Position numbers and translations under genes: made by a program. Under the pieces are notes generated by a model. It had not been told where the DNA came from, ran no database searches, and worked only from the letters and a program-made list of their open reading frames with translations. From Gemmatimonadales bacterium (GTDB taxonomy: Bacteria > Gemmatimonadota > Gemmatimonadetes > Gemmatimonadales > GWC2-71-9), in NCBI GenBank assembly GCA_036394755.1, contig DASWEL010000002.1, forward strand, positions 73,166 through 137,165: 64,000 nucleotides of DNA. The letters are read 5' to 3'. Below are positions 26,808-39,781 of the stretch, piece after piece (the stretch's first letter is position 1; every line of letters begins with the position of its first letter).

Positions 26808-29300
<2,493 letters not shown>

Positions 29301-29345
29301 CTGTCTCCTGGGTCTGGCTGGTCGTGAGGCAGGGGAGCGCGAGTC

Positions 29346-30707
29346 CTACTTCTCCGCGTATTCGTAGTACTCGATGCCGAGGTGCGTGATCTGCTCCTCA
29401 CCCATCAGCCAACGCAGCGTGTTCTTGAGCTTGGTCTGCTGGATGAAGAGATCGTGCTCGGCGTAGAGGCCGGCGGCGAATTGCGGGCTCTTGAAATAGA
29501 ATGAGAGCCATTCCTGAATGCCCGAGAGTCCCGCACGGCCGGCGAGGTCGAAGAACAGCGCGAGGTCGAGCACGATCGGCGCGGCGAGGATCGAGTCGCG
29601 GCACAGGAAGTCGACCTTGATCTGCATCGGATAGCCGAGCCATCCGAAGATGTCGATGTTGTCCCACCCTTCCTTATTATCACCGCGGGGTGGGTAGTAG
29701 TTGATCCGTACCTTGTGATAGACCTTGCCGTAGAGCTCGGGATAGAGGTCGGGCTGGAGAATGTGCTCGAGCAATCCGAGCTTGGACTCCTCCTTGGTCT
29801 TGAACGACTCCGGGTCATCCAGCACTTCGCCGTCACGATTGCCGAGAATGTTGGTGGAATACCATCCCGACAGGCCGAGCATGCGCGCCTTGAACGCCGG
29901 CGCGAGGACGCTCTTCATCATGGTCTGACCGGTCTTGAAGTCCTTGCCGCCGATCGGCACGTGGCGCTCTTCCGCCAGCCGCTCCATCACGGGGAGGTCG
30001 ACGGTCAGATTGGGCGCGCCGTTCGCGAACGGCACATTCTCCAACAGCGCGGCATACGCGTAGAGCATGGACGGGGCGATCGACTGGTCATTCTGCTCCA
30101 TCGCCTTCTCGAAGGCGGCCAGCGACTGATGCGCCGGGCCGGGCGTGAGAAACACCTCCGTCGAGGCACACCACACCACGACGAGGCGATCGAGTCCCGC
30201 GCTGTTCTTGAAGTTCCGCATGTCCTCCCGCAGCTGCTCCGCGAGCTCCCGCTTGTTCTTGCCGCGCTTGACGTTCGTCCCGTGCAGCCGCTTGACGTAG
30301 TACTGATCGAAGACGGCAGGCATCGGTTTGATGTTCTGCAGGAAGTCCTTGATCGGCTCGAGGTGCTCGTGCTTGTCGAGCACGCCGGCTTTCACCGCCG
30401 CGGTGTACGCGTCATCGGGAATGGGGTCCCAGGCCGCGAACACGAGATCCTTCAGATCGGCGAGCGGCACGAACTCCTTGATCTTCGGCGCGCGCTTCTC
30501 GGTCCGCTTGCCGAGCCGGATGGTCGCCATCTGGCTGAGCGAGCCGATCGGGAGGGCTCGACCCCGCCGCACGTTTTCGACGCCGGCGATGAACGTGGTG
30601 GAGACGGCGCCAAGGCCGACCAGCATCACGCCCAGTTTCCCCTTCGCGGGCGCGATCTCCCGTGCGCCTCCCGTGACGACCGCCGTCCCCGTTTGCTCCC
30701 GTGCCAT
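29346..30707 (-). CDS. ino1: myo-inositol-1-phosphate (inositol-3-phosphate) synthase
   Basis: ...LGVMLVGLGAVSTTFIAG...NILGNRDGEVLDDPESFKTKEESK...WDNIDIFGWLGYPMQIKVDFLCRDSILAAP...; ATG 30705-30707 overlaps upstream stop (TGATG). Confidence 0.9.
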   Translation of the reverse strand: MAREQTGTAVVTGGAREIAPAKGKLGVMLVGLGAVSTTFIAGVENVRRGRALPIGSLSQMATIRLGKRTEKRAPKIKEFVPLADLKDLVFAAWDPIPDDAYTAAVKAGVLDKHEHLEPIKDFLQNIKPMPAVFDQYYVKRLHGTNVKRGKNKRELAEQLREDMRNFKNSAGLDRLVVVWCASTEVFLTPGPAHQSLAAFEKAMEQNDQSIAPSMLYAYAALLENVPFANGAPNLTVDLPVMERLAEERHVPIGGKDFKTGQTMMKSVLAPAFKARMLGLSGWYSTNILGNRDGEVLDDPESFKTKEESKLGLLEHILQPDLYPELYGKVYHKVRINYYPPRGDNKEGWDNIDIFGWLGYPMQIKVDFLCRDSILAAPIVLDLALFFDLAGRAGLSGIQEWLSFYFKSPQFAAGLYAEHDLFIQQTKLKNTLRWLMGEEQITHLGIEYYEYAEK

Positions 30708-31405
30708 CAATGTCCTTTGCGGCGTGCCGCCGCGACTCCAGGCAACGTCTCACGTTTGTGAATCGGCGACGGCGGCGGCGCGCCGCGGGCCACGCGCGCG
30801 ACATGCACCACCCGTTGGATCACCGTGATCGCGGAGACGAGCGCGAGCACCGCCACAATCCAGAACAGCAGGACACCGGGGCGCCCCGGTCCTGCGCCAA
30901 ACGCCAGCGACGGCAGACCGAGCAGCAGAATTCGCTCGGCCCGCGAGGCAATCCCGACTTTGCATTCCACGCCGAGCGCTTCAGCCCGCGCCCGCGTGTA
31001 CGACACCAAGAGTGACGCGACCAGCGCGACCAACCCCGCGGCAATGGCCAGCGATTTCAGCTGGGTCGGTAACGGGCCGGTCAAAAAATAGAAGATCAGC
31101 CCGGTAAAAACCGCCGCCTCGCCGACCCGATCGAGAGTCGAATCGTAGAAGGCGCCGAACGTCGTCATCTTGCCGCCCTGGCGTGCCACCTGCCCATCGA
31201 GGATGTCGAGGGTCCCGCTCAAGAGCAACAGGAGGCCGCCGAGCCGGATCGCGCCGACGCCGAACGCCACGCCGGAGCCGATCACGACCAGGGTGCCCAG
31301 CGTGGTAATCGCATTCGGGTGCACGCCGCCCTGTATCAGGGCACGCGCCAGCGGTCCGGTCAACCTGACAAAACCGTCTTTGACGCGCTGGGGAATGACA
31401 TTCAT
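30707..31405 (-). CDS. CDP-alcohol phosphatidyltransferase (PIP-synthase-like)
   Basis: LDILDGQVARQGGKMTTFGAFYDSTLDRVGE matches D-x2-D-G-x2-A-R-x8-G-x3-D-x3-D; about 6 TM. Confidence 0.85.
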   Translation of the reverse strand: MNVIPQRVKDGFVRLTGPLARALIQGGVHPNAITTLGTLVVIGSGVAFGVGAIRLGGLLLLLSGTLDILDGQVARQGGKMTTFGAFYDSTLDRVGEAAVFTGLIFYFLTGPLPTQLKSLAIAAGLVALVASLLVSYTRARAEALGVECKVGIASRAERILLLGLPSLAFGAGPGRPGVLLFWIVAVLALVSAITVIQRVVHVARVARGAPPPSPIHKRETLPGVAAARRKGH

Positions 31406-31463: not shown

Positions 31464-31586
31464 TCAATCACTCTTCGACGGGCCCGAGAACAGCTTGTAG
31501 ACGACAAAACCGCCCACCTCCCCTTTGGTGCGGGCGTTGTCGACGTCCTTCCTGGTGTAGAGATCGGGAAGATCGGTCTTCGCCAT
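31464..31586 (-). CDS. Micro-ORF, 40 aa, unknown function
   Basis: MAKTDLPDLYTRKDVDNARTKGEVGGFVVYKLFSGPSKSD; high GC3; ATG overlaps VOC stop (TGATG). Confidence 0.4.
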   Translation of the reverse strand: MAKTDLPDLYTRKDVDNARTKGEVGGFVVYKLFSGPSKSD

Positions 31587-31969
31587 CAGGCTGCCGCGAA
31601 GTGCGGGTTCTCGATGAGCCCTATCAGATTCCCAAACGGATCGGCCACCGTCGCTACGCGAATCCCCTCCCCCACATCCTGAATGGGAGACTTGAGCGTG
31701 GCCCCCGCGCGAATAAACTGCTCGACCCCTTTCTCGACGTTCGCGACACCCCAATATGCCACCGAGCCTCCGGGGCCCGGCTTGACGCTCTTGGGATCGG
31801 GATCGAGCCCGAGCTCGTAGCCTCCGATGTTGAAGCCCACGTAGAACGGCTCATCGAAGTACGGTTTGACGCCGAAGGCAGAGCTGTACCACTCCTTGGC
31901 GCGTTTGAGATCGGCAACGTGATAGATCACCGTGCGTAAGCCGAGAACCGTCATCTCACCCTTCTTCAT
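31586..31969 (-). CDS. VOC/glyoxalase-family protein
   Basis: 127 aa; ...LRTVIYHVADLKRAKEWY...GYELGL...VATVADPFGNLIGL... paired beta-alpha-beta-beta-beta pattern. Confidence 0.8.
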   Translation of the reverse strand: MKKGEMTVLGLRTVIYHVADLKRAKEWYSSAFGVKPYFDEPFYVGFNIGGYELGLDPDPKSVKPGPGGSVAYWGVANVEKGVEQFIRAGATLKSPIQDVGEGIRVATVADPFGNLIGLIENPHFAAA

Positions 31970-32275
31970 TTAGCGCGGTCTGATCGTTCCAGTCACCTCG
32001 GCGAGGACGCGGTAGCCCTCCAGACGAGCGGGAATTCTCCTTTTCGTATCGGCGCCCGAGTCGGCGAGAAACACTTTGATGCACCGTTCTCCGTCGCACA
32101 ACCCGATCGCGGTCCCCACGACGCCGGGGAGAGCCATGAGGGAATCGGTATGCGCGGCGAGAACCTCATCGATGCTCCTCGCAGTCACCGTGGCTGTCCC
32201 TCCCCCGCGCTGAGCACCGGAGCACGCGAGTGCCCCGGCCAGCAGTACCAACGCCAACGTGCGTGCTACCATCAC
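31970..32275 (-). CDS. Stand-alone protease-propeptide-like lipoprotein, 101 aa
   Basis: Lipobox LLAGALAC; HTDSLMALPGVVGTAIG...PARLEGYRVLAEVTGTI parallels residues ~85-140 of the upstream protease (HTDALLSIPGVVGTAVT...PGMLEGIPVTQRVTGRL); GTG overlaps protease stop (GTGA). Confidence 0.65.
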   Translation of the reverse strand: MMVARTLALVLLAGALACSGAQRGGGTATVTARSIDEVLAAHTDSLMALPGVVGTAIGLCDGERCIKVFLADSGADTKRRIPARLEGYRVLAEVTGTIRPR

Positions 32276-35200
32276 TGACGCTTCACCGTAACCGAGAAGC
32301 CGTTGCTGCTGCCATCCGGATCATGATTGAGAGCTGACTTGTACACGTACCCCGACAGGGTGAGTGCGGTCACCCCGAACGAGACCATCTTGGTTGAGTT
32401 CGGAAGGTTCGACAGGACGACGCTACACGTTCCCGTCGGACCGGTTACGCACCCCACCTCCGGATTGGATCCGTTCCAGAGGCCGCGCACGCTCGCGCCG
32501 TTCACGAGATTATGCCGGGAATCATGCACGGTAATCTTCACCGTCGCCGACCAGTTGTTCCCGTTGCTCGTGGCAACACCATCGAGATTGCCCACGTGGA
32601 GGTTCGGCGGGTTCACGGTGATGGCGATGGCGCGCGCGTCGTTGCTCGAATTGTTGTCCGCCAGCTTCTGCGTCGCCGTCAGGATGTGACCGTTCGTCGC
32701 GACCCCGGCGGTGTTCCAGTTGATAGTGCGTGTCACGCTCGCACCCGCGCCAATCCCGGTGATCGTCTGCGTTCCAACGGTGATGCCTCCCGCTGTGCCG
32801 TCGGTCAACACAACGTCGAAGCTGGTGCTCACATCCACCCCGCCCAGGTTCTGCACCGTGACCACAACCGGCGCCGTATCGCCCTGCGTCACCTGGGCGG
32901 GCCCCGTGATGGCGGTCAACGCGAGATCGACCGGCTGCGGATTCACGGTGACCGTCGTCGAGCGCTGGTTGTTGGCGCTGTTGTCATCCGTAAAGGTCTG
33001 GGTCGCCACGACCGTGTGACCGCCCAGCGCCGCGCCCGTGGTGCTCCAGCTGAATGAGGGCGTAGCTGTCGCACCGATAGCCAACCCGGTGATGGTTTGC
33101 GTGCCAATCGTCACGCCTGCGGTGGCGTCGGTGAGCACGACGTTGAAACTGCTCGTGACGTTCTGGCCGCCCACGTTCTGAACCGTGACTTGGGCCGTGG
33201 CCGAATTGCCTTGAATCACCGAGCTCGGCGCGCTCACGTCGGTCACGGCGACGTCGATGACCGGGGCGTTCACGGTGACCGTCGCTCCGCCCTGATTGTT
33301 GGCGGCGTTGGCGTCGCTCAAACTGTGGGTCGCCACGAGCCGGTGACCACCCAATGCGGCGCCCGTCGTATTCCAGTTGAACGTGCGAGTCGCGGTGGCG
33401 CCGACGGCGAGCCCAGCCACCGTCTGTGTACCGAGCGTTACGCCTGCCGTCGAGTCGGTCAGGACAACATCAAAGCTGCTGCTGACGTTCAAGCCACCCA
33501 CGTTTTGGACCGTAACCCCAATGGAAGCGGTACTGCCCTGGGTCACCGCGCTCGGCGCAACGACGCTGCTCACGGCGACATCGGTGATTGGCGGGGCCTC
33601 CACAATCACACTGATGCCGACGGTGTTGTTCGCAGGATCGCTATCGGCGAGCCTCACCGACGCGAACAGCGTGTGCCCGGTGACAGCGGCGCCGGCGGTG
33701 TTCCAATCGAACGTACGCGTCACGCTCGCACCCACGGCGAGCCCGGCGATCGTCTGCGTGCCCAGGATCGGACCGCTGAATCCGTCGGTCAACACCACGT
33801 CGAAGTTGGTCGTAACGTCCTGCCCACCGACGTTCTTTACCGTGACCACGATATGTGCGGTATCGCCCTGGTTCACGCGCGCGGGGCCGGTGATGCCCGT
33901 AATGGCGACGTCGGTCCCCGGAGGCGGCGGCGGGGGCGGGGGCGGCGGACCCGGTGGCCCCGGGGCCGTCACGTTGATCGCGATCCCGATGCTGTTGTTC
34001 GAGGAGTTGTCGTCCGGCAGCTTGTTGTTCGCGAAGAGGGTGTGCCCGGTGACAGTCGCTCCGGCGGTGTTCCACAGCATCTCTACCGTGGTCGTCGCCC
34101 CGGCGGCGAGGCTGGGAACTGTCGCCGTCGCGACTACCGGGACGGCCCACCCGTCGCTCAGCTCGATGGTGAAGGGTGAAGTGACATCCACCTCACCCAC
34201 GTTCTGGACCGTGACCACCACGTGCGCCGTATCGCCCTGGGCCACGGAGCGCGGCCCGGTAATACCGGTCACCGCGATATCGAGCGGCTTGGGCGTGATC
34301 GTGACGACGGTGGTGCGCCGATTGTTGGCGGCGTTGTCGTCGGCCAGGGCGTGCGTGGCGACGAGCGTGTGCCCGCCCAGCGCCGCGCCGGTCGTGTTCC
34401 AGCTGAAGACGAGCGTCGTGCTGGTACCTGCGGCGAGCCCGTGGATTGTCTGCGTGCCCAGTGTGACACCGGCGGTCGAGTCCTGCAGGGTGACAGGGAT
34501 GTCACCCGTGACGTTCTGATTGCCGACGTTCGTGACAGTCACGCCGACATTTACGTTGTGCCCGACGATTACCGAGCCGGCTCCACTGAAACTCGTTACC
34601 GCGACGTCGGTGACCGGCGGGTTGACCGTGATCGTCACGAAACGCTGGTCGTTCGTGGCTCTGTCATCGGACCGCGTCTGACGTGCCACCAGGTCGTGAT
34701 CGCCCGTCGTGCCCGGCGTCCAGGAGAATGTCACGGTGGTGCTGGCGCCCGCGACGAGCCCGGAGACGCTCTGCGTGCCGACCGTCACGTGCTCCGTCGT
34801 GTCCTGCAATGTGACGTCGAAGGCGGAGACGTCCTGGTTGCCGACGTTTTTCACGGAGACCGTGACGCTCGACGTACCGCCCTGCACCGCTGAGCTGGGA
34901 CCACTGACGCTCGTCACGGCCAGGTCGGTCAGCGGTCCCGGCGGCGGCGGCGCAAAGCCGTCGATCACGACGCCGAAGCGTTGGAGCACGAGATCGATCC
35001 GGTTGGCGATCGTGACGCTCGCATTGCCGGCGAACAGCAACGCGACGGGGTTGAGATTCGCGTCGTCGGTCACGATGAGCGAGCCCGAGTCTCCGCCGTT
35101 GCTGAACCCGCCCGGCGAGATGATCAACTGGTCCACATAGCGGGCGGTCTTCGTGCACGTGAATCCCGAAACCGCATAGCAGATCGTGACCGTCGCGTTG

Positions 35201-36027
35201 ATGCCCGTGATCTGGCCGTGTGTCAGCCGCGTAGTGCGGCCGTACTTCTGGACGTTCAGGCTGAGCAGCGCGTTGCGGTCATCGAACAATCCGTCACCGT
35301 TCGCGTCGCCGAAGATCGTCGAGTTCGGCGTGCTGTAGCCGTCGTCGGCGGGCGTCGCGTTGTCCAGCACGGCGGTCGTGGAGAGGGCGATGGCGGCATC
35401 GATGGTGTTGGTGCCGTTGGCGGCGAACGAAATAACCTGAAAGTCACTGAGGGTCGCGATCTGATCGGCGGCGGTACCCCCATCAAATGGACCCGGCTGG
35501 TACTCGGGATCGCCGATGCTGGCACCATTCGAGTTGGCGAGGACGTGATTGTTCGAGAGGATGTACACCCGTCCCAGCGCGTCACGCACGCGCGCGCCGA
35601 TCGTACCGGCGGTGATCGCCGGATGTCCCACCGAGAAACCCATGGGCGCGGGGCGCTGGCGCTGCGTGGGATCGCTGAGGGCCATGAGCCGGCCGGTGAC
35701 CCGTTGCGTCACGGGGATCCCCTCGAGCATGCCGGGGAGGCCGGCTATGCCGGCGCGCTCCAGCAGGAGCAGCAGGCCCGGATGTCCGTCGGGATCCACG
35801 GTCACCGCAGTTCCGACGACCCCGGGGATCGAAAGCAACGCGTCGGTGTGATGCCGTTGTGCCGTGATCGCCGCGCGGAGATCGGGAATGAGACGCGTGA
35901 CTGGGAGCGCGGGACCCGCGGGAGAATTCGAAGCGCTGTCGGAGCACGCGTACCAGACGGCGGGCGCGGCAGCAATCAGGACGACGATGGCACCGCGAAC
36001 GAACGCGCGGACGGAGGGTGCAGCCAT
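32272..36027 (-). CDS. Secreted S1 (chymotrypsin-fold) serine protease with pro-domain, seven CARDB-like repeats and a C-terminal beta domain
   Basis: Lipoprotein signal ...AAPAVWYAC; triad contexts YILSNNHVLA, NTIDAAIA, NGGDSGSLIV; 7 x ~108-aa repeats; poly-Pro linker; ATG 36027 has GGGAG 5 nt upstream (track start 36105 is less likely). Confidence 0.85.
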   Translation of the reverse strand: MAAPSVRAFVRGAIVVLIAAAPAVWYACSDSASNSPAGPALPVTRLIPDLRAAITAQRHHTDALLSIPGVVGTAVTVDPDGHPGLLLLLERAGIAGLPGMLEGIPVTQRVTGRLMALSDPTQRQRPAPMGFSVGHPAITAGTIGARVRDALGRVYILSNNHVLANSNGASIGDPEYQPGPFDGGTAADQIATLSDFQVISFAANGTNTIDAAIALSTTAVLDNATPADDGYSTPNSTIFGDANGDGLFDDRNALLSLNVQKYGRTTRLTHGQITGINATVTICYAVSGFTCTKTARYVDQLIISPGGFSNGGDSGSLIVTDDANLNPVALLFAGNASVTIANRIDLVLQRFGVVIDGFAPPPPGPLTDLAVTSVSGPSSAVQGGTSSVTVSVKNVGNQDVSAFDVTLQDTTEHVTVGTQSVSGLVAGASTTVTFSWTPGTTGDHDLVARQTRSDDRATNDQRFVTITVNPPVTDVAVTSFSGAGSVIVGHNVNVGVTVTNVGNQNVTGDIPVTLQDSTAGVTLGTQTIHGLAAGTSTTLVFSWNTTGAALGGHTLVATHALADDNAANNRRTTVVTITPKPLDIAVTGITGPRSVAQGDTAHVVVTVQNVGEVDVTSPFTIELSDGWAVPVVATATVPSLAAGATTTVEMLWNTAGATVTGHTLFANNKLPDDNSSNNSIGIAINVTAPGPPGPPPPPPPPPPGTDVAITGITGPARVNQGDTAHIVVTVKNVGGQDVTTNFDVVLTDGFSGPILGTQTIAGLAVGASVTRTFDWNTAGAAVTGHTLFASVRLADSDPANNTVGISVIVEAPPITDVAVSSVVAPSAVTQGSTASIGVTVQNVGGLNVSSSFDVVLTDSTAGVTLGTQTVAGLAVGATATRTFNWNTTGAALGGHRLVATHSLSDANAANNQGGATVTVNAPVIDVAVTDVSAPSSVIQGNSATAQVTVQNVGGQNVTSSFNVVLTDATAGVTIGTQTITGLAIGATATPSFSWSTTGAALGGHTVVATQTFTDDNSANNQRSTTVTVNPQPVDLALTAITGPAQVTQGDTAPVVVTVQNLGGVDVSTSFDVVLTDGTAGGITVGTQTITGIGAGASVTRTINWNTAGVATNGHILTATQKLADNNSSNDARAIAITVNPPNLHVGNLDGVATSNGNNWSATVKITVHDSRHNLVNGASVRGLWNGSNPEVGCVTGPTGTCSVVLSNLPNSTKMVSFGVTALTLSGYVYKSALNHDPDGSSNGFSVTVKRQ
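32605..34932 (-). repeat. Seven tandem ~324-bp coding repeats (CARDB-like Ig domains) inside the protease gene
   Basis: Each unit reads ...TDVAVTxxxxPxxVxQGxxxxxxVTVxNVGxxxV...LTDxTAGVTLGTQTxxGLAxGAxxTxxFxWNTxGAxxGxHxLxA...; interrupted by PGPPGPPPPPPPPPPG encoded near 33915-33965. Confidence 0.8.
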
Positions 36028-36121
36028 AGCGACTCCCGGTTGAATCCCAAGGGCGCGGGCGCGGGCACCAACAATGGAGGCGCCCGACCGACTCGGCAAG
36101 CTCAACCTGAGACGCGCAGCT

Positions 36122-36799
36122 CTAAGTCTCCTTGTTCGAGGATGTTATCCGTGCGGCAAGAGCTTCCATTTGCCGCTCCCGCAACCGCGCCCAGCGCGGC
36201 AGCCGGAGTGCGCCGCTCGCAATCATTCCGGCACCTGCTGCAGCCATCAGCGCGATGCCAGGAATCGCTTCGCCCAACGTACCCCAGACGGCACCCGAAA
36301 TGACCAGGACGGCGGTGATGCCGAGGACGGCGATTCCCGCACCGATCGAGGCGCGCGCGCCGCCATGCAGGGTCCCGAAGCGCAAGCGGTGACCAGTTTC
36401 GGTTGGCTCGAGCAGCACCTGCAGGTTTCCGTTCGTCCACTGCCGCAGCGAGCCCTCGGAACGCGTGCGGCCGCGCGCGTTGAAAACTTCACGCAATTGG
36501 ACGACGAGACGCTCCCACTCCTCATCGGTGAGCCGTCGGTTGAGATTGACGGTCCGGGCCACGCCGATGGGCAGTCCCAGGAACGTCCGCGACGCCGCGC
36601 CGAAACGCACATCGACGGCTCGAGCAGCTTGGGCGACCGCATCGGAAGGAATGCCGACCTCGCTGCCGATCGCCTGGAGCTCGGCGAGCGTCAACCCTTC
36701 GTCGCGCGCGACCTCGCGCTGCGGACTCTGAGGCCCTTCTTCCGCGGCCGCGCGAAAGATCGCCGCGATCTCTTTGTCGTTGTAGCGTCGCTCGGCCAT
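36122..36799 (-). CDS. Hypothetical membrane protein, 225 aa
   Basis: Soluble N-terminal ~150 aa, then two Gly/Ala-rich TM helices; no family recognised. Confidence 0.6.
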   Translation of the reverse strand: MAERRYNDKEIAAIFRAAAEEGPQSPQREVARDEGLTLAELQAIGSEVGIPSDAVAQAARAVDVRFGAASRTFLGLPIGVARTVNLNRRLTDEEWERLVVQLREVFNARGRTRSEGSLRQWTNGNLQVLLEPTETGHRLRFGTLHGGARASIGAGIAVLGITAVLVISGAVWGTLGEAIPGIALMAAAGAGMIASGALRLPRWARLRERQMEALAARITSSNKET

Positions 36800-36808
36800 G
36801 GCTCTAAT

Positions 36809-38041
36809 CTAGTAAATCAGGTGTTTTGTACGAGTCTCGCGAAATCGCTCCAGGTCACCATCCCACGAATTCCAGATTTCCCGCGCCTGCCGGCCCGCCT
36901 CGAGCGCCATGCGGAGCTCCGGCCCGGCTGCCAGCCGATCGAAGCTCTGCGCGCGAAACTGAAACTCGTCGGGATGCGCCGCCCGAATCGCGACGAGCAG
37001 GGCGACCGCGAGTTTCGTGGGGTCGTAGACCTGACGATCGCGGACCCGCAGCTCGATTCCCTTCAACGCCACGCCGGCGTACTTGCCATCGGTCGGCGCG
37101 ATTGGAGTGAAGCGCGTCGCTCGCACCTCCACTCCGTGAAGCGCCGAGCTGTCGAGACGCGCGATCACACGGTCCGGATCGAGCCACGGCGCACCCAGCA
37201 CGCGAAACGCCGTCGCCGTACCGCGACCAACCGACACATTCGTCCCTTCGAACAAACAGGTACCGGGATAGAGCAACGCGCTCTCGATGTCGGGCATGTT
37301 GGGCGACGGTTTCACCCACGGGAGACCCGTCTGATCGTAGAACAGCGTGCGATTCCACCCCAGCGCGGGCACGACGACAAGATCGGTGCCGATGGCTAAG
37401 GCATCGTTGGCCAAGCGCGCCAGCTCGCCGAGTGTCATGCCATAGCGCATCGCGACAGGCATGAAACCGGAGAAGAGGGAATCGGGATCGCCGGCGCGCC
37501 CGCGCACGTTGCCCTGCACCGCGGTCCCGCCGACGGGATCGGGGCGGTCGAGGACGACGACCCGTTTTCCCGCACGCGTTGCATCGCGCATGAACTGCAC
37601 GGTGGTGGCGATGTAGGTGTAGTAGCGCGCGCCAATGTCCTGCAGGTCGATGAGGAGCACGTCGACCGAATCGACCGCGGCGCGCGCGGCGGTACGCGAT
37701 CCGCCATAGAGACTGTAGATTGGGAGACCGCTGGCGGAGTCCCTGCCGTCCGGAAGTCCCGAGCGATCTTCCGTGCCGCGAAAGCCGTGCTCGGGACTGA
37801 ATAAGACGGTAAGTCGTGCGTCGTGCGTCGTGCGTAACAGATCGACGTCGCGGCGGCCGAGATGATCGACGCCGGTGTTGTTCGTCAGCAGACCGAGTCG
37901 CTTGCCGGCGATGAGGTGTGCCGAATCCGAGAGCAGGACCTCGATGCCGGGCCGAACCTGGGCCGCGAGGGGTGATGGGACGCGTGTTCCGCTGGAACAG
38001 CCAATCCCCAACCCGATCCAAACGAGACGATGCGCGCGCAT
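36809..38041 (-). CDS. namZ: DUF1343 / NamZ-like exo-beta-N-acetylmuramidase lipoprotein
   Basis: MRAHRLVWIGLGIGCSS lipobox; ...GIEVLL...GKRLGLLTNNTGVD...LFSPEHGFRGT... DUF1343 hallmarks; the upstream 289 codons of the 699-aa track ORF are antisense to the GH3 gene. Confidence 0.8.
   Translation of the reverse strand: MRAHRLVWIGLGIGCSSGTRVPSPLAAQVRPGIEVLLSDSAHLIAGKRLGLLTNNTGVDHLGRRDVDLLRTTHDARLTVLFSPEHGFRGTEDRSGLPDGRDSASGLPIYSLYGGSRTAARAAVDSVDVLLIDLQDIGARYYTYIATTVQFMRDATRAGKRVVVLDRPDPVGGTAVQGNVRGRAGDPDSLFSGFMPVAMRYGMTLGELARLANDALAIGTDLVVVPALGWNRTLFYDQTGLPWVKPSPNMPDIESALLYPGTCLFEGTNVSVGRGTATAFRVLGAPWLDPDRVIARLDSSALHGVEVRATRFTPIAPTDGKYAGVALKGIELRVRDRQVYDPTKLAVALLVAIRAAHPDEFQFRAQSFDRLAAGPELRMALEAGRQAREIWNSWDGDLERFRETRTKHLIY
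37813..37835. repeat. Tandem heptamer GTCGTGC x3 (same unit as at 15807)
   Basis: gtcgtgc gtcgtgc gtcgtgc gt inside namZ. Confidence 0.9.
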
Positions 38042-39781
38042 AGACTCCTGATCGTTGCGATGCTGGCCGCCTGTGGCGGACCACGGGTTGTTGGACCGAC
38101 GCCGCAGCCGGCCGTCGATGCCGTCCTCAGCAAACTGACCCAGCGCCAGAAGGTCGCGCAACTCGTGGTGCCGTGGCTGGGCGGAAACTACATGGCGCTG
38201 GACGATTCCGCCTTCCAGATCGCGACGCGCTGGGTCGATTCGCTCGAGGTCGGCGGCATCATCATCTCCGTCGGCTCGCCCTACGACATCGCCGCGAAGC
38301 TCAACACGCTGCAGCGCCGTTCCAAACTGCCGCTCCTCGTTTCCGCGGATCTCGAGTGGGGCGCCGCGATGCGCGTGATCGGCGCCACCGCATTTCCCTA
38401 CATCATGGCCGCCGGCGCGACCGGTGACCAGCGCGACGCGTACACGATCGGCCGGGTCGCCGCGCGCGAGGGACGCGCCGTCGGCATCCACGTGAATTTC
38501 GCGCCCGATGCGGACGTCAACAACAACCCGCTCAATCCCATCATCAACACCCGCTCGTTCGGCGAGGACCCGCGCGCCGTGGCGCGGCTGGTGCGCGGCT
38601 ACGTGCGCGGCCTGCAGGACAACGGCATGCTCGCCACGCTGAAACACTTCCCGGGCCATGGCGACACGGATGCGGACTCGCACATCGGTCTGCCCGCGAT
38701 CCGCGTCGACTATGCCCGGCTCGACTCCGTCGAACTCGTGCCGTTCCGCGCCGGCATCGACGCCGGTGCGCAGGTCGTCATGAGCGCCCACATCGCCTTC
38801 CCCGCATTCACGGGTGAGACACCCGCGACGCTGTCCGCGGCGATGCTGACCGGTGTGCTGCGCGATTCGCTCAAGTTCAAAGGGCTGGTCGTGACCGACG
38901 CGCTCCAAATGGGCGCCATCGTCGCCAGGTACGGCGCCGGCGAGGCGGCGGTGCGTGCGTTCGAGGCGGGGTCGGACCTGTTGCTCATGCCGGCCGATCC
39001 CGATTCGGCGATCGGGTCGATGCTGGTCGCCTTGCGGACAGGACGCCTCACGACCGCGCGACTGGACGCCTCCGTGCGGCGCGTGCTCGAGATCAAGCGC
39101 GGGCTCGGCCTCTTCGAGCGCCGCACCGTGCCGCTCGACTCGATCGCGCGCATCGTCGGCTCGAAGTCATTCCAGGATGCCGCGGACGACATCGCGCAAC
39201 GGTCCCTGACACTCGTCCGGGATACGACCGGCATCGTCGCGTGGCTGCGCGGCGCGCGCAGCCGGATGGCCATCATCGCGTACGGCGACGAGCTGAACAG
39301 CTATGTCGGGCAGCGCATGCTCGAGCTCATGCGCGCCGGCGGTGACACGGTTGGCTTCTTCCGGCTCTGGCCGATGTCGGGGACCGCGTCGTACGACTCG
39401 GCGCGCGTCGTGATCGGGCGGGCGCCCACGGTGATCTTTGCGATGAACGTGCGACCGATCGCGGCGAAGGGCAGCATCGCACTGCCTGATTCCCTCGCGC
39501 GGCTGATCACGATGACCGACTCGGTGAAGCCGACCGTCCTCGTCTCGTTGGGCAGCCCCTATCTGCTGAACCAGACGCCGACTGTGAAGTCGTATCTGAT
39601 CGCCTGGAGCGGCGTGCGCACGGCGGAGAAGGCCGCCGCGCGCGCGCTGCTCGGCTGGTCGCCCGTGCGCGGCAAGCTGCCGATTCGGATTCCCCCCTCC
39701 TACCCCATCGGCTACGGGCTCACGGTGTCCGACTCGACGCTGCCGCCGGTGAGACCGCCGGCGCACGTCATCATGCCGTGA
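38030..39781 (+). CDS. nagZ: GH3 beta-N-acetylhexosaminidase lipoprotein (NagZ/YbbD-like, two-domain)
   Basis: MRAHRLLIVAMLAAC lipobox; ...KHFPGHGDTDADSH...; 583 aa. Confidence 0.85.
   Translation: MRAHRLLIVAMLAACGGPRVVGPTPQPAVDAVLSKLTQRQKVAQLVVPWLGGNYMALDDSAFQIATRWVDSLEVGGIIISVGSPYDIAAKLNTLQRRSKLPLLVSADLEWGAAMRVIGATAFPYIMAAGATGDQRDAYTIGRVAAREGRAVGIHVNFAPDADVNNNPLNPIINTRSFGEDPRAVARLVRGYVRGLQDNGMLATLKHFPGHGDTDADSHIGLPAIRVDYARLDSVELVPFRAGIDAGAQVVMSAHIAFPAFTGETPATLSAAMLTGVLRDSLKFKGLVVTDALQMGAIVARYGAGEAAVRAFEAGSDLLLMPADPDSAIGSMLVALRTGRLTTARLDASVRRVLEIKRGLGLFERRTVPLDSIARIVGSKSFQDAADDIAQRSLTLVRDTTGIVAWLRGARSRMAIIAYGDELNSYVGQRMLELMRAGGDTVGFFRLWPMSGTASYDSARVVIGRAPTVIFAMNVRPIAAKGSIALPDSLARLITMTDSVKPTVLVSLGSPYLLNQTPTVKSYLIAWSGVRTAEKAAARALLGWSPVRGKLPIRIPPSYPIGYGLTVSDSTLPPVRPPAHVIMP

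Follow-up and report, generated by a model that had tools for sequence, protein, structure and literature searches.

A NAL1-like protease gene of Gemmatimonadota is paired with a gene for a stand-alone paralogue of the protease N-terminal domain

A gene for a predicted NAL1-like chymotrypsin-fold serine protease and a gene for a small predicted lipoprotein form a conserved, widespread two-gene module. Sequence comparison establishes the small protein as a separately encoded, ancient paralogue of the N-terminal domain (N-domain) that the protease itself carries. By analogy with SpeB-Spi, the small protein may mimic the N-domain in trans, binding the protease and regulating it, a reading to which we give a probability of roughly 45%.

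The two genes are on the minus strand of the window, the whole 64,000-nucleotide stretch of DNA that was analysed. The host is a soil Gemmatimonadota bacterium. The large open reading frame (36105..32272) opens with an alternative TTG start at 36105, and the start used by protease homologues corresponds to the ATG at 36027. Read from this ATG, the protease gene (32272..36027) encodes a 1251-aa probable lipoprotein with a NAL1-like chymotrypsin-fold serine protease domain and seven CARDB repeats. The small lipoprotein gene (31970..32275) encodes 101 aa from GTG or 100 aa from ATG. As originally predicted for a ~1250-aa lipoprotein followed by a 101-aa gene, the two overlap by 4 nt in GTGA (32272..32275), which combines the GTG start at 32275 with the protease stop TGA (32274..32272). 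An ATG (32272-32270) follows as the next codon and shares 1 nt with the protease stop, and the junction reads GTGATG. This ATG is the start in most orthologues of the small gene. Whichever start is used, the junction has a sequence typical of translational coupling. On the 3′ side, a glyoxalase-like gene abuts the small gene via TAAATG. Scans of the locus gave no promoter-like site and a single terminator-like one, which is on the opposite strand.

The genome survey of the small gene covered Gemmatimonadota. In about 48 of 53 informative species loci the protease lay directly upstream of the small gene; five small genes had no adjacent protease. Many of the junctions fell between -4 and +3 nt, and overlapping or abutting genes were common. 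The protease was also upstream in 5 of 5 distant relatives. When compared from the protease side, the small gene was present at 38 of 52 informative metagenome loci and 14 proteases were without a small partner. These 52 loci span 39-96% identity to the window protease, with ORF lengths of ~310-1480 aa. The survey bears out the expectation that the pair is conserved as neighbours. The conserved partner is the protease: relatives that keep the pair have an opposite-strand S9 peptidase in place of the downstream glyoxalase-like gene, and the latter was therefore rejected as a third gene of the module. The upstream 225-aa gene was also rejected, as it is not conserved.

The signal peptide of the protease (35944..36027, minus strand, as are all features below) ends at a conserved Cys, …AAAPAVWYAC|SDS. 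The lipobox is atypical (VWYAC), and Cys-Ser-Asp is conserved in homologues. The N-domain (35677..35889, residues 73-143 of the TTG ORF) is the segment duplicated in the small protein. It consists of a helix, a beta-hairpin and a strand, with the motif HTxxLLxIPGVVGTAV…LP..LEG.PV…VTG. A conserved linker, SDPTQRQRP (35650..35676), joins it to the catalytic domain; model confidence is low here and the linker is a candidate processing region. The catalytic domain (34954..35664) has a predicted chymotrypsin fold, with the catalytic His at 35545-35547, Asp at 35398-35400 and Ser at 35086-35088. The catalytic motifs SNNHVLA, IDAAIA and GGDSGS were correctly picked out by the original prediction, and the triad H187, D236 and S340 (TTG-ORF numbering) is invariant in 52 homologues. 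Motifs and models together assign the protease to the chymotrypsin fold (clan PA) with the triad order His-Asp-Ser. Its description as an S1 protease holds for the type of fold, but assignment to the S1 family is not supported, as Pfam Trypsin PF00089 matched neither the window protease nor any of the 52 homologues. Weak Peptidase_S64 matches were seen in the protease family, and Trypsin_2 matched 2 of the 52 homologues.

The seven CARDB repeats (32608..34935; Pfam PF07705, E 5.6e-57, seven stretches) start near residues 392, 498, 607, 730, 840, 949 and 1058, with a poly-proline spacer (33916-33957) within the region. The C-terminal domain of ~109 aa (32275..32601) gave a weak Big_1-like Ig match and is also present in short paralogues without CARDB repeats. 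The protease had been called giant; at 1251 aa it is, and its size comes from the seven CARDB repeats and the Ig-like C-terminal domain, not from the protease domain. The AF2 model of the protease (pLDDT 73) fits the double beta-barrel of solved members of the fold, with matches at probability 1.00 to NAL1, streptogrisins, alpha-lytic protease and 3C proteases.

The small protein is composed, in order, of a signal with the lipobox LLAGALAC (32222-32275), a Gly-rich tether and one copy of the N-domain (31973-32179). Its lipobox Cys is invariant in 37 orthologues, and a lipobox-like motif is present in 57 of 92 diverse members of the family. A conserved Cys pair, C60 (32096-32098) and C65 (32081-32083), sits at the hairpin tip and probably forms a disulfide. 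The AlphaFold model has a pLDDT of 86. Foldseek of this model against the PDB gave no significant match, NAL1 included, and PDB sequence and fold searches with the small protein returned generic alpha/beta matches only. The small protein matched nothing from Pfam or NCBIfam, and we found no paper on the two-gene module. The family comprises ~1,800 clusters at 50% identity (1,813 at E<=1e-3). Tandem two- and three-copy versions of the domain occur, and in a single case, at one locus, it is fused to a PEBP domain. The PEBP family is listed as serine-protease inhibitors, MEROPS I51 (PMC5361777).

The 101-aa protein had been predicted to repeat the N-terminal segment of the protease, and this was confirmed. 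In a single BLASTP comparison with protease residues 86-138, 23 of 56 positions were identical (41%, E 8e-8). Comparison of the small-family and N-domain-family alignments with hhalign gave a probability of 99.1% (E 6.5e-19). The AlphaFold models of both segments have a helix, a beta-hairpin, a short helix or loop and a beta-strand in the same order, and the expected structural similarity of the two segments is thereby borne out. Gemmatimonadota small proteins stop where the N-domain stops (…VTGTIRPR vs …VTGRLMAL|SDPT). The mean pairwise identity was 0.65 for the small protein, compared with 0.57 for the cis N-domain. Similarity of a small protein to its own partner's N-domain was 0.386, compared with 0.378 to other N-domains. 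Because similarity to the own partner is no higher and the small protein is the more conserved of the two, it is an old, selected paralogue, and its gene is under purifying selection. Recent duplication or gene conversion was rejected on the same similarity values and because the small proteins form a family of their own that can be recognised even in distant lineages.

The cis N-domain was detected in nearly every protease whose N-terminus lies inside the locus, with or without a partner; the protease of locus L145 was the exception. A split architecture, in which the partner supplies a missing N-domain, was rejected for this reason. A second copy is hard to explain for an N-domain mimic, as the proteases already carry their own.

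The predicted locations of the two partners, as read from their signal sequences, do not always match. Both products of the gene pair in the window are predicted lipoproteins with a signal ending in Cys. At L124, L125 and L133 the protease is exported and the small partner is too short at its N-terminus for a signal peptide. Protection from premature activity is consistent with these signal-less partners. At L066 and L067 a protease without a signal peptide is paired with a small lipoprotein, a mismatch that is hard to square with direct contact.

The best structural match of the catalytic domain was rice NAL1 (~370-390 aligned columns, E ~1e-10), followed by streptogrisin and alpha-lytic enzymes. 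NAL1 (PDB 7Y77, 8PMM, 8HAS) and the window protease have the H-D-S triad in common at ~17% sequence identity. Against Pfam Nal1_C the window protease scored 17.4 bits with a cut-off of 26.1, and 47 of the 52 homologues matched at E<=1 (best 5.3e-8). The window protease's own N-domain had no direct match to Pfam NAL1_N, and the link runs through divergent members. The N-domain of the L066 protease matched NAL1_N (PF25608) at 32.6 bits, above the curated cut-off of 27, and the small-family profile matched the same L066 residues. The alignment places the N-domain on NAL1 residues 105-151, part of the ATP-binding domain that immediately precedes the protease domain. These transitive profile matches link the protease N-domain to NAL1_N and the NAL1 ATP-binding domain as its likely counterpart.

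The two proteins differ in other respects. NAL1, from a plant, is cytosolic, ATP-binding and hexameric, whereas the window protease is a predicted bacterial lipoprotein and extracytoplasmic. A signal peptide, CARDB repeats and a free-standing copy of the domain are all part of the window system; NAL1 lacks the first two and is not known to have the third. ATP binding by the window protease is implausible because it would act outside the cytoplasm. That the small protein might bind ATP like the NAL1 domain was set aside, since it is predicted to be exported and probably contains a disulfide.

In NAL1, the ATP-binding domain is retained in the mature enzyme, contacts the protease domain of a neighbour (PDB 8PME) and builds the trimer (PMC12012508). 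This contact in trans is a physical precedent for trans docking. We hold it possible, if only tentatively, that the family of free N-domains consists of dedicated partners of NAL1-like proteases, which would control the enzyme by taking up the docking site through which its own N-domain assembles or gates the protease.

The same precedent fits a structural role, in which the small lipoprotein would cap or complete a NAL1-like oligomer, or would tether the protease after its lipidated N-domain has been clipped off. The NAL1 trimer is built by contacts between the same domain and the protease domain, the architecture of the small protein is that of the lipidated stub expected from such processing, and three tandem copies of the domain, known beside two-copy versions, would suit a trimer. 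Both partners in the window are also lipoproteins. However, the mismatched predicted locations at other loci argue against an obligatory complex, and we consider a structural role unlikely.

Streptogrisins and alpha-lytic protease need their pro-regions to fold. The original prediction took the N-terminal segment for a pro-domain of this kind, in which case the cleaved N-domain would be needed for a kinetically stable protease to fold, with the small protein as an extra chaperone in trans. Its chymotrypsin-fold assignment of the catalytic domain was well founded, and streptogrisins and alpha-lytic protease are the closest relatives after NAL1 by structure and sequence. Their pro-regions also resemble the N-terminal module in size and order of elements. 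The streptogrisin B pro-region is similar in length to the small protein, and both run through helix, hairpin, helix, strand and tail, the strand after the first helix opening with a G-T-A motif in each. The model shows a flexible linker, and the small protein ends where the N-domain ends. However, the window domain has no significant sequence or profile similarity to these pro-regions. PF02983 matched neither the protease nor any of 92 small proteins, and hhalign against 103 genuine streptogrisin B pro-regions fetched for this purpose was not significant (E 0.075 and 0.29, probability <1%). Homology to the alpha-lytic/streptogrisin pro-region is not supported. Its link is to NAL1_N, a domain kept in the mature enzyme, and the cis copy in nearly every protease would make a second foldase redundant. 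To our knowledge, streptogrisin and alpha-lytic pro-regions do not occur as separate genes. The reading as a pro-domain is not supported, and a foldase paralogue is quite unlikely; the broader original suggestion, that the small protein may be a chaperone or an inhibitor acting in trans, is a reasonable hypothesis.

The small protein might also have the same fold and a separate task, such as binding a ligand or serving as a substrate or decoy, and be merely co-regulated with the protease. This is hardly probable: the varied locations (among them an exported small protein paired with a protease predicted to be cytoplasmic), the orphan small genes and the very large family (1,813 clusters at E<=1e-3) would suit it, but same-strand adjacency is kept from 39% to 96% protease identity while all other neighbours change, junctions often overlap, and it is difficult to see why the small protein should be a paralogue of its partner's own domain unless the two have a binding surface in common.

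Extracellular proteases are kept harmless to their producer by cleaved pro-peptides or by separately encoded inhibitors. In Streptococcus pyogenes, Spi is a co-transcribed copy of the N-terminal segment of SpeB and inhibits it; staphostatins and Bacteroides Bfi are inhibitors co-transcribed with a secreted or lipoprotein protease that protect the producer (PMC2873492). The window has the layout of SpeB-Spi, with a small gene directly after the protease gene, on the same strand and homologous to the protease's own N-terminal segment. SpeB differs from the window protease in fold and catalytic class: it is a papain-like cysteine protease whose propeptide is known to be cleaved, and inhibition by Spi is established, while cleavage of the N-domain and inhibition are putative for the window pair. 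The likeness to staphostatins and Bfi lies in the operon logic of a small gene beside a protease gene. Staphostatins have a lipocalin-like fold and resemble no part of the protease they accompany, whereas the small protein of the window copies the N-domain. A separately encoded N-terminal copy is documented for SpeB; for chymotrypsin-fold serine proteases we came across no such report.

For a regulatory N-domain mimic, we propose the following mechanism. The protease would be anchored to the membrane by its lipid, followed by the ~70-aa N-domain, the catalytic domain, seven CARDB repeats and the Ig-like end. The small lipoprotein would be made from the same transcript via the overlapping stop and start, and coupled translation would fix its proportion to the protease. 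The free N-domain copy would then dock in trans on the surface of the protease domain that an N-domain normally takes. Once bound, it would regulate the enzyme, most likely keeping it inactive or unassembled until it reaches its destination.

If the small lipoprotein binds and controls the protease, it would represent a large unannotated family of regulators in soil bacteria. If the docking-site reading is true, this would be a new family of inhibitors or regulators for chymotrypsin-fold proteases. NAL1 is a yield-related protease of rice whose regulation is only starting to be understood. The domain would then be an autonomous protease-binding module with a bearing on the regulation of plant NAL1, and the pair would provide a simple bacterial system for the crosstalk between the domain that precedes the protease domain and the catalytic domain in NAL1.

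The two genes of the pair lie on the minus strand. The protease ORF extends from a TTG at 36105 to 32272; an ATG at 36027, where its homologues begin, gives 1251 aa. The small ORF (32275..31970) encodes 101 aa counted from its GTG. As originally predicted, stop and start overlap: the junction is CGT CAG TGA over GTG ATG GTA, and the GTG lies over the TGA with a 4-nt overlap. The other possible start, the ATG used by most orthologues, leaves 1 nt. Downstream, a glyoxalase/VOC-family gene (31586-31969, minus strand; Pfam E 2e-10) joins the small-gene stop at a TAAATG. It is found in the closest relatives, and elsewhere its place is taken by an opposite-strand S9 peptidase. It is probably co-transcribed with the pair in the window and, because it is replaced in some relatives, probably not part of the module. 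Just upstream of the protease, a 225-aa ORF (36122-36799, minus strand) without a confident family match is present in the closest relatives (locus L001) and absent from L005-L007. The surrounding genes (26808-31405, minus strand, and 36809-39781) are housekeeping genes with conserved synteny in relatives, including H+-pyrophosphatase, inositol-1-phosphate synthase, CDP-alcohol phosphatidyltransferase, NamZ-like and GH3 genes. Among them there is no sign of a mobile element or defence island. The window has a G+C of ~65%, and every close homologue is from a Gemmatimonadota metagenome-assembled genome.

The small protein has the predicted lipobox LLAGALAC, a Gly-rich tether and a single compact domain. 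The claim that it copies the protease's N-terminal segment was well supported. Residues 42-96 align with protease residues 86-138 at 41% identity (BLASTP, E 8e-8), and profiles of 92 diverse small proteins and 52 protease N-termini match with a probability of 99.1% and E 6.5e-19. The small-protein model (pLDDT 86) has a helix (35-47), a hairpin (52-60/63-70), a short helix (75-80) and a strand (88-94), a modelled order the same as that of the protease N-domain. Both share the motifs HTxxL..(I/L)PGVVGTA and (I/L)P..LEG..V…VTG; only the small family has the short second helix and, at the hairpin tip, a pair of Cys residues (C60, C65). Gemmatimonadota small proteins stop at the residue aligned with the N-domain end (…VTGTIRPR vs …VTGRLMAL|SDPT). 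The family comprises 1,813 clusters at 50% identity (E<=1e-3); neither Pfam nor NCBIfam has a model for it, and none of its names is informative. Every one of its best 150 clusters is a short protein, and in some the domain occurs in two or three tandem copies.

Across 50 paired loci, the catalytic domain had a mean pairwise identity of 0.75, compared with 0.65 in the small domain and 0.57 in the cis N-domain. The small protein was as similar to its own partner's N-domain (0.386) as to other N-domains (0.378). By sequence comparison, this equal similarity and better conservation indicate that the small copy is old, has not been refreshed by gene conversion and is under more constraint than the N-domain from which it was copied.

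We favor, with a probability of roughly 45%, the reading that the small lipoprotein is a trans-acting N-domain mimic that binds and regulates the protease. It would imitate the protease's own N-domain in trans, dock on the catalytic domain at the usual N-domain site and most probably keep the enzyme inactive or unassembled, its dose being set by coupled translation. A partner that replaces a missing protease part is ruled out, since nearly every protease retains its own N-domain. A structural subunit or membrane tether is unlikely, though the first of the alternatives. Both partners are predicted to be exported in the window and most loci, and cytoplasmic in L137, L138, L143 and L145. These last four lack the Cys pair, consistent with a disulfide that serves only outside the cytoplasm. 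In L066 and L067, the protease is predicted cytoplasmic and the partner is a lipoprotein; these proteases (L066:4754-5740, L067:4896-5870) lack a signal peptide, with in-frame stops 27-30 nt upstream of the ATG, and the small partners downstream carry clear lipoprotein signals. In L124, L125 and L133, an exported protease is predicted together with a cytoplasmic partner, whose stop-to-stop ORF leaves no room for a signal peptide. This arrangement recalls staphostatins and Spi, for which a role in protecting the producer cell from ectopic or premature activity has been proposed (PMC2873492).

At the protease N-terminus, a signal peptide that terminates in a conserved Cys precedes the ~70-aa N-domain (residues 73-143 of the TTG ORF). 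A conserved linker, SDPTQRQRP, of low confidence in the AlphaFold model, leads to the ~240-aa catalytic domain, in which the predicted catalytic residues are invariant as His187, Asp236 and Ser340. A proline-rich hinge, seven CARDB repeats (Pfam E 5.6e-57) and an Ig-like domain (last ~109 aa) follow; the last also terminates short paralogues without CARDB repeats. The window protease has sub-threshold Pfam matches to Nal1_C and Peptidase_S64, which are matched by 47/52 and 49/52 protease homologues, respectively. Rice NAL1 is the top match of its AlphaFold model (pLDDT 73; E about 1e-10, ~380 columns), followed by streptogrisins, alpha-lytic protease and viral 3C proteases. These matches make the window protein a serine protease with a chymotrypsin fold, probably NAL1-like. 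No Pfam trypsin model matches it; the original label "S1" is right for the fold and unsupported as a family assignment.

The "pro-domain" identity was weakened. In the divergent proteases of L066 and L067, the N-domain is recognized as Pfam NAL1_N (32.6 bits in L066; cut-off 27), and the small-family profile matches the same L066 residues. L066 residues 22-70 align with residues 105-151 of full-length NAL1, within its ATP-binding domain (residues 89-172), which immediately precedes the protease domain. This ATP-binding domain remains part of NAL1, where it comprises four strands and a curved helix and builds the trimer through its interface with the neighboring subunit's protease domain (PMC12012508). 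Against 103 distinct streptogrisin B pro-regions, profile comparison gave E values of 0.29 and 0.075 over only 7-15 columns (VaGTAW / VVGTA). Because element order and length are alike, a distant relationship to the streptogrisin pro-region is possible; a true pro-peptide-like foldase is improbable.

The pair is kept as neighbors, as predicted. Starting from the small gene, 56 genome loci were compared, each from a different Gemmatimonadota species; in 45, the gene immediately upstream on that strand encodes a protease with both N-domain and catalytic domain, three of them with frameshifted ORFs. Another three contigs break off inside the CARDB region of the gene upstream, three loci were uninformative, and the remaining five lacked a protease within 2.5-6 kb. 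Spacings of -4, -1, 0 or +2/+3 nt are frequent at the junctions. Partnered protease ORFs in this survey measure 380 to about 1480 aa; the pair thus persists across differing CARDB loads. For all five distant small proteins, which share 35-43% identity with that of the window, a protease of this type sits immediately upstream. Starting from the protease in metagenomes (39-96% identity to the window), a small-domain gene was immediately downstream in 38 of 52 informative loci. An independent function, merely co-regulated with the protease, is accordingly given a low probability. A subclade of small lipoproteins (…IDAVLAAHNDSL…APCIRVLVTRTSDELRRR…) in L056, L057, L058, L060 and L061 has no protease within 2.5-6 kb upstream; any protease partner would have to lie elsewhere. 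Downstream frames in L060 and L061 resemble methionine-salvage enzymes, judged by eye. In another Gemmatimonadota genome, the paralogous protease P0050 (L004:1708-3225, 505 aa, 68% identical), which has no CARDB array, lacks a small partner and is followed by a convergent gene for an M13 peptidase.

Domain fusions were also found. On metagenome contig Ga0184623_10017967 (L123:1005-1862), one ORF joins the small domain in frame to a PEBP/YbhB domain at its C-terminus (Pfam PBP, E 1.4e-44). PEBP is listed among serine-protease inhibitor families (MEROPS I51; PMC5361777), and this single case, possibly a lost stop codon, is only a hint of an inhibitor link. Two or three tandem copies per lipoprotein occur in L066:6001-6531, L067:6001-6768 and L131:1059-1739, and tandem copies are also present in proteins P0250, P0253, P0290, P0318 and P0322; a match between three copies and a protease trimer is speculative. 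In the hybrid P0297 (250 aa, representative library), a small-family domain directly follows the N-domain and initial ~90 catalytic-domain residues of a protease; this hybrid may be a deletion fusing both genes or an assembly chimera.

The module was not described in the libraries or in a NAL1-centered full-text literature search. The principle of encoding a copy of a protease's N-terminal segment in the next gene is already known from SpeB and Spi, the propeptide-analogue inhibitor of Streptococcus pyogenes. The present module differs from SpeB-Spi in its fold, the domain involved and its breadth.
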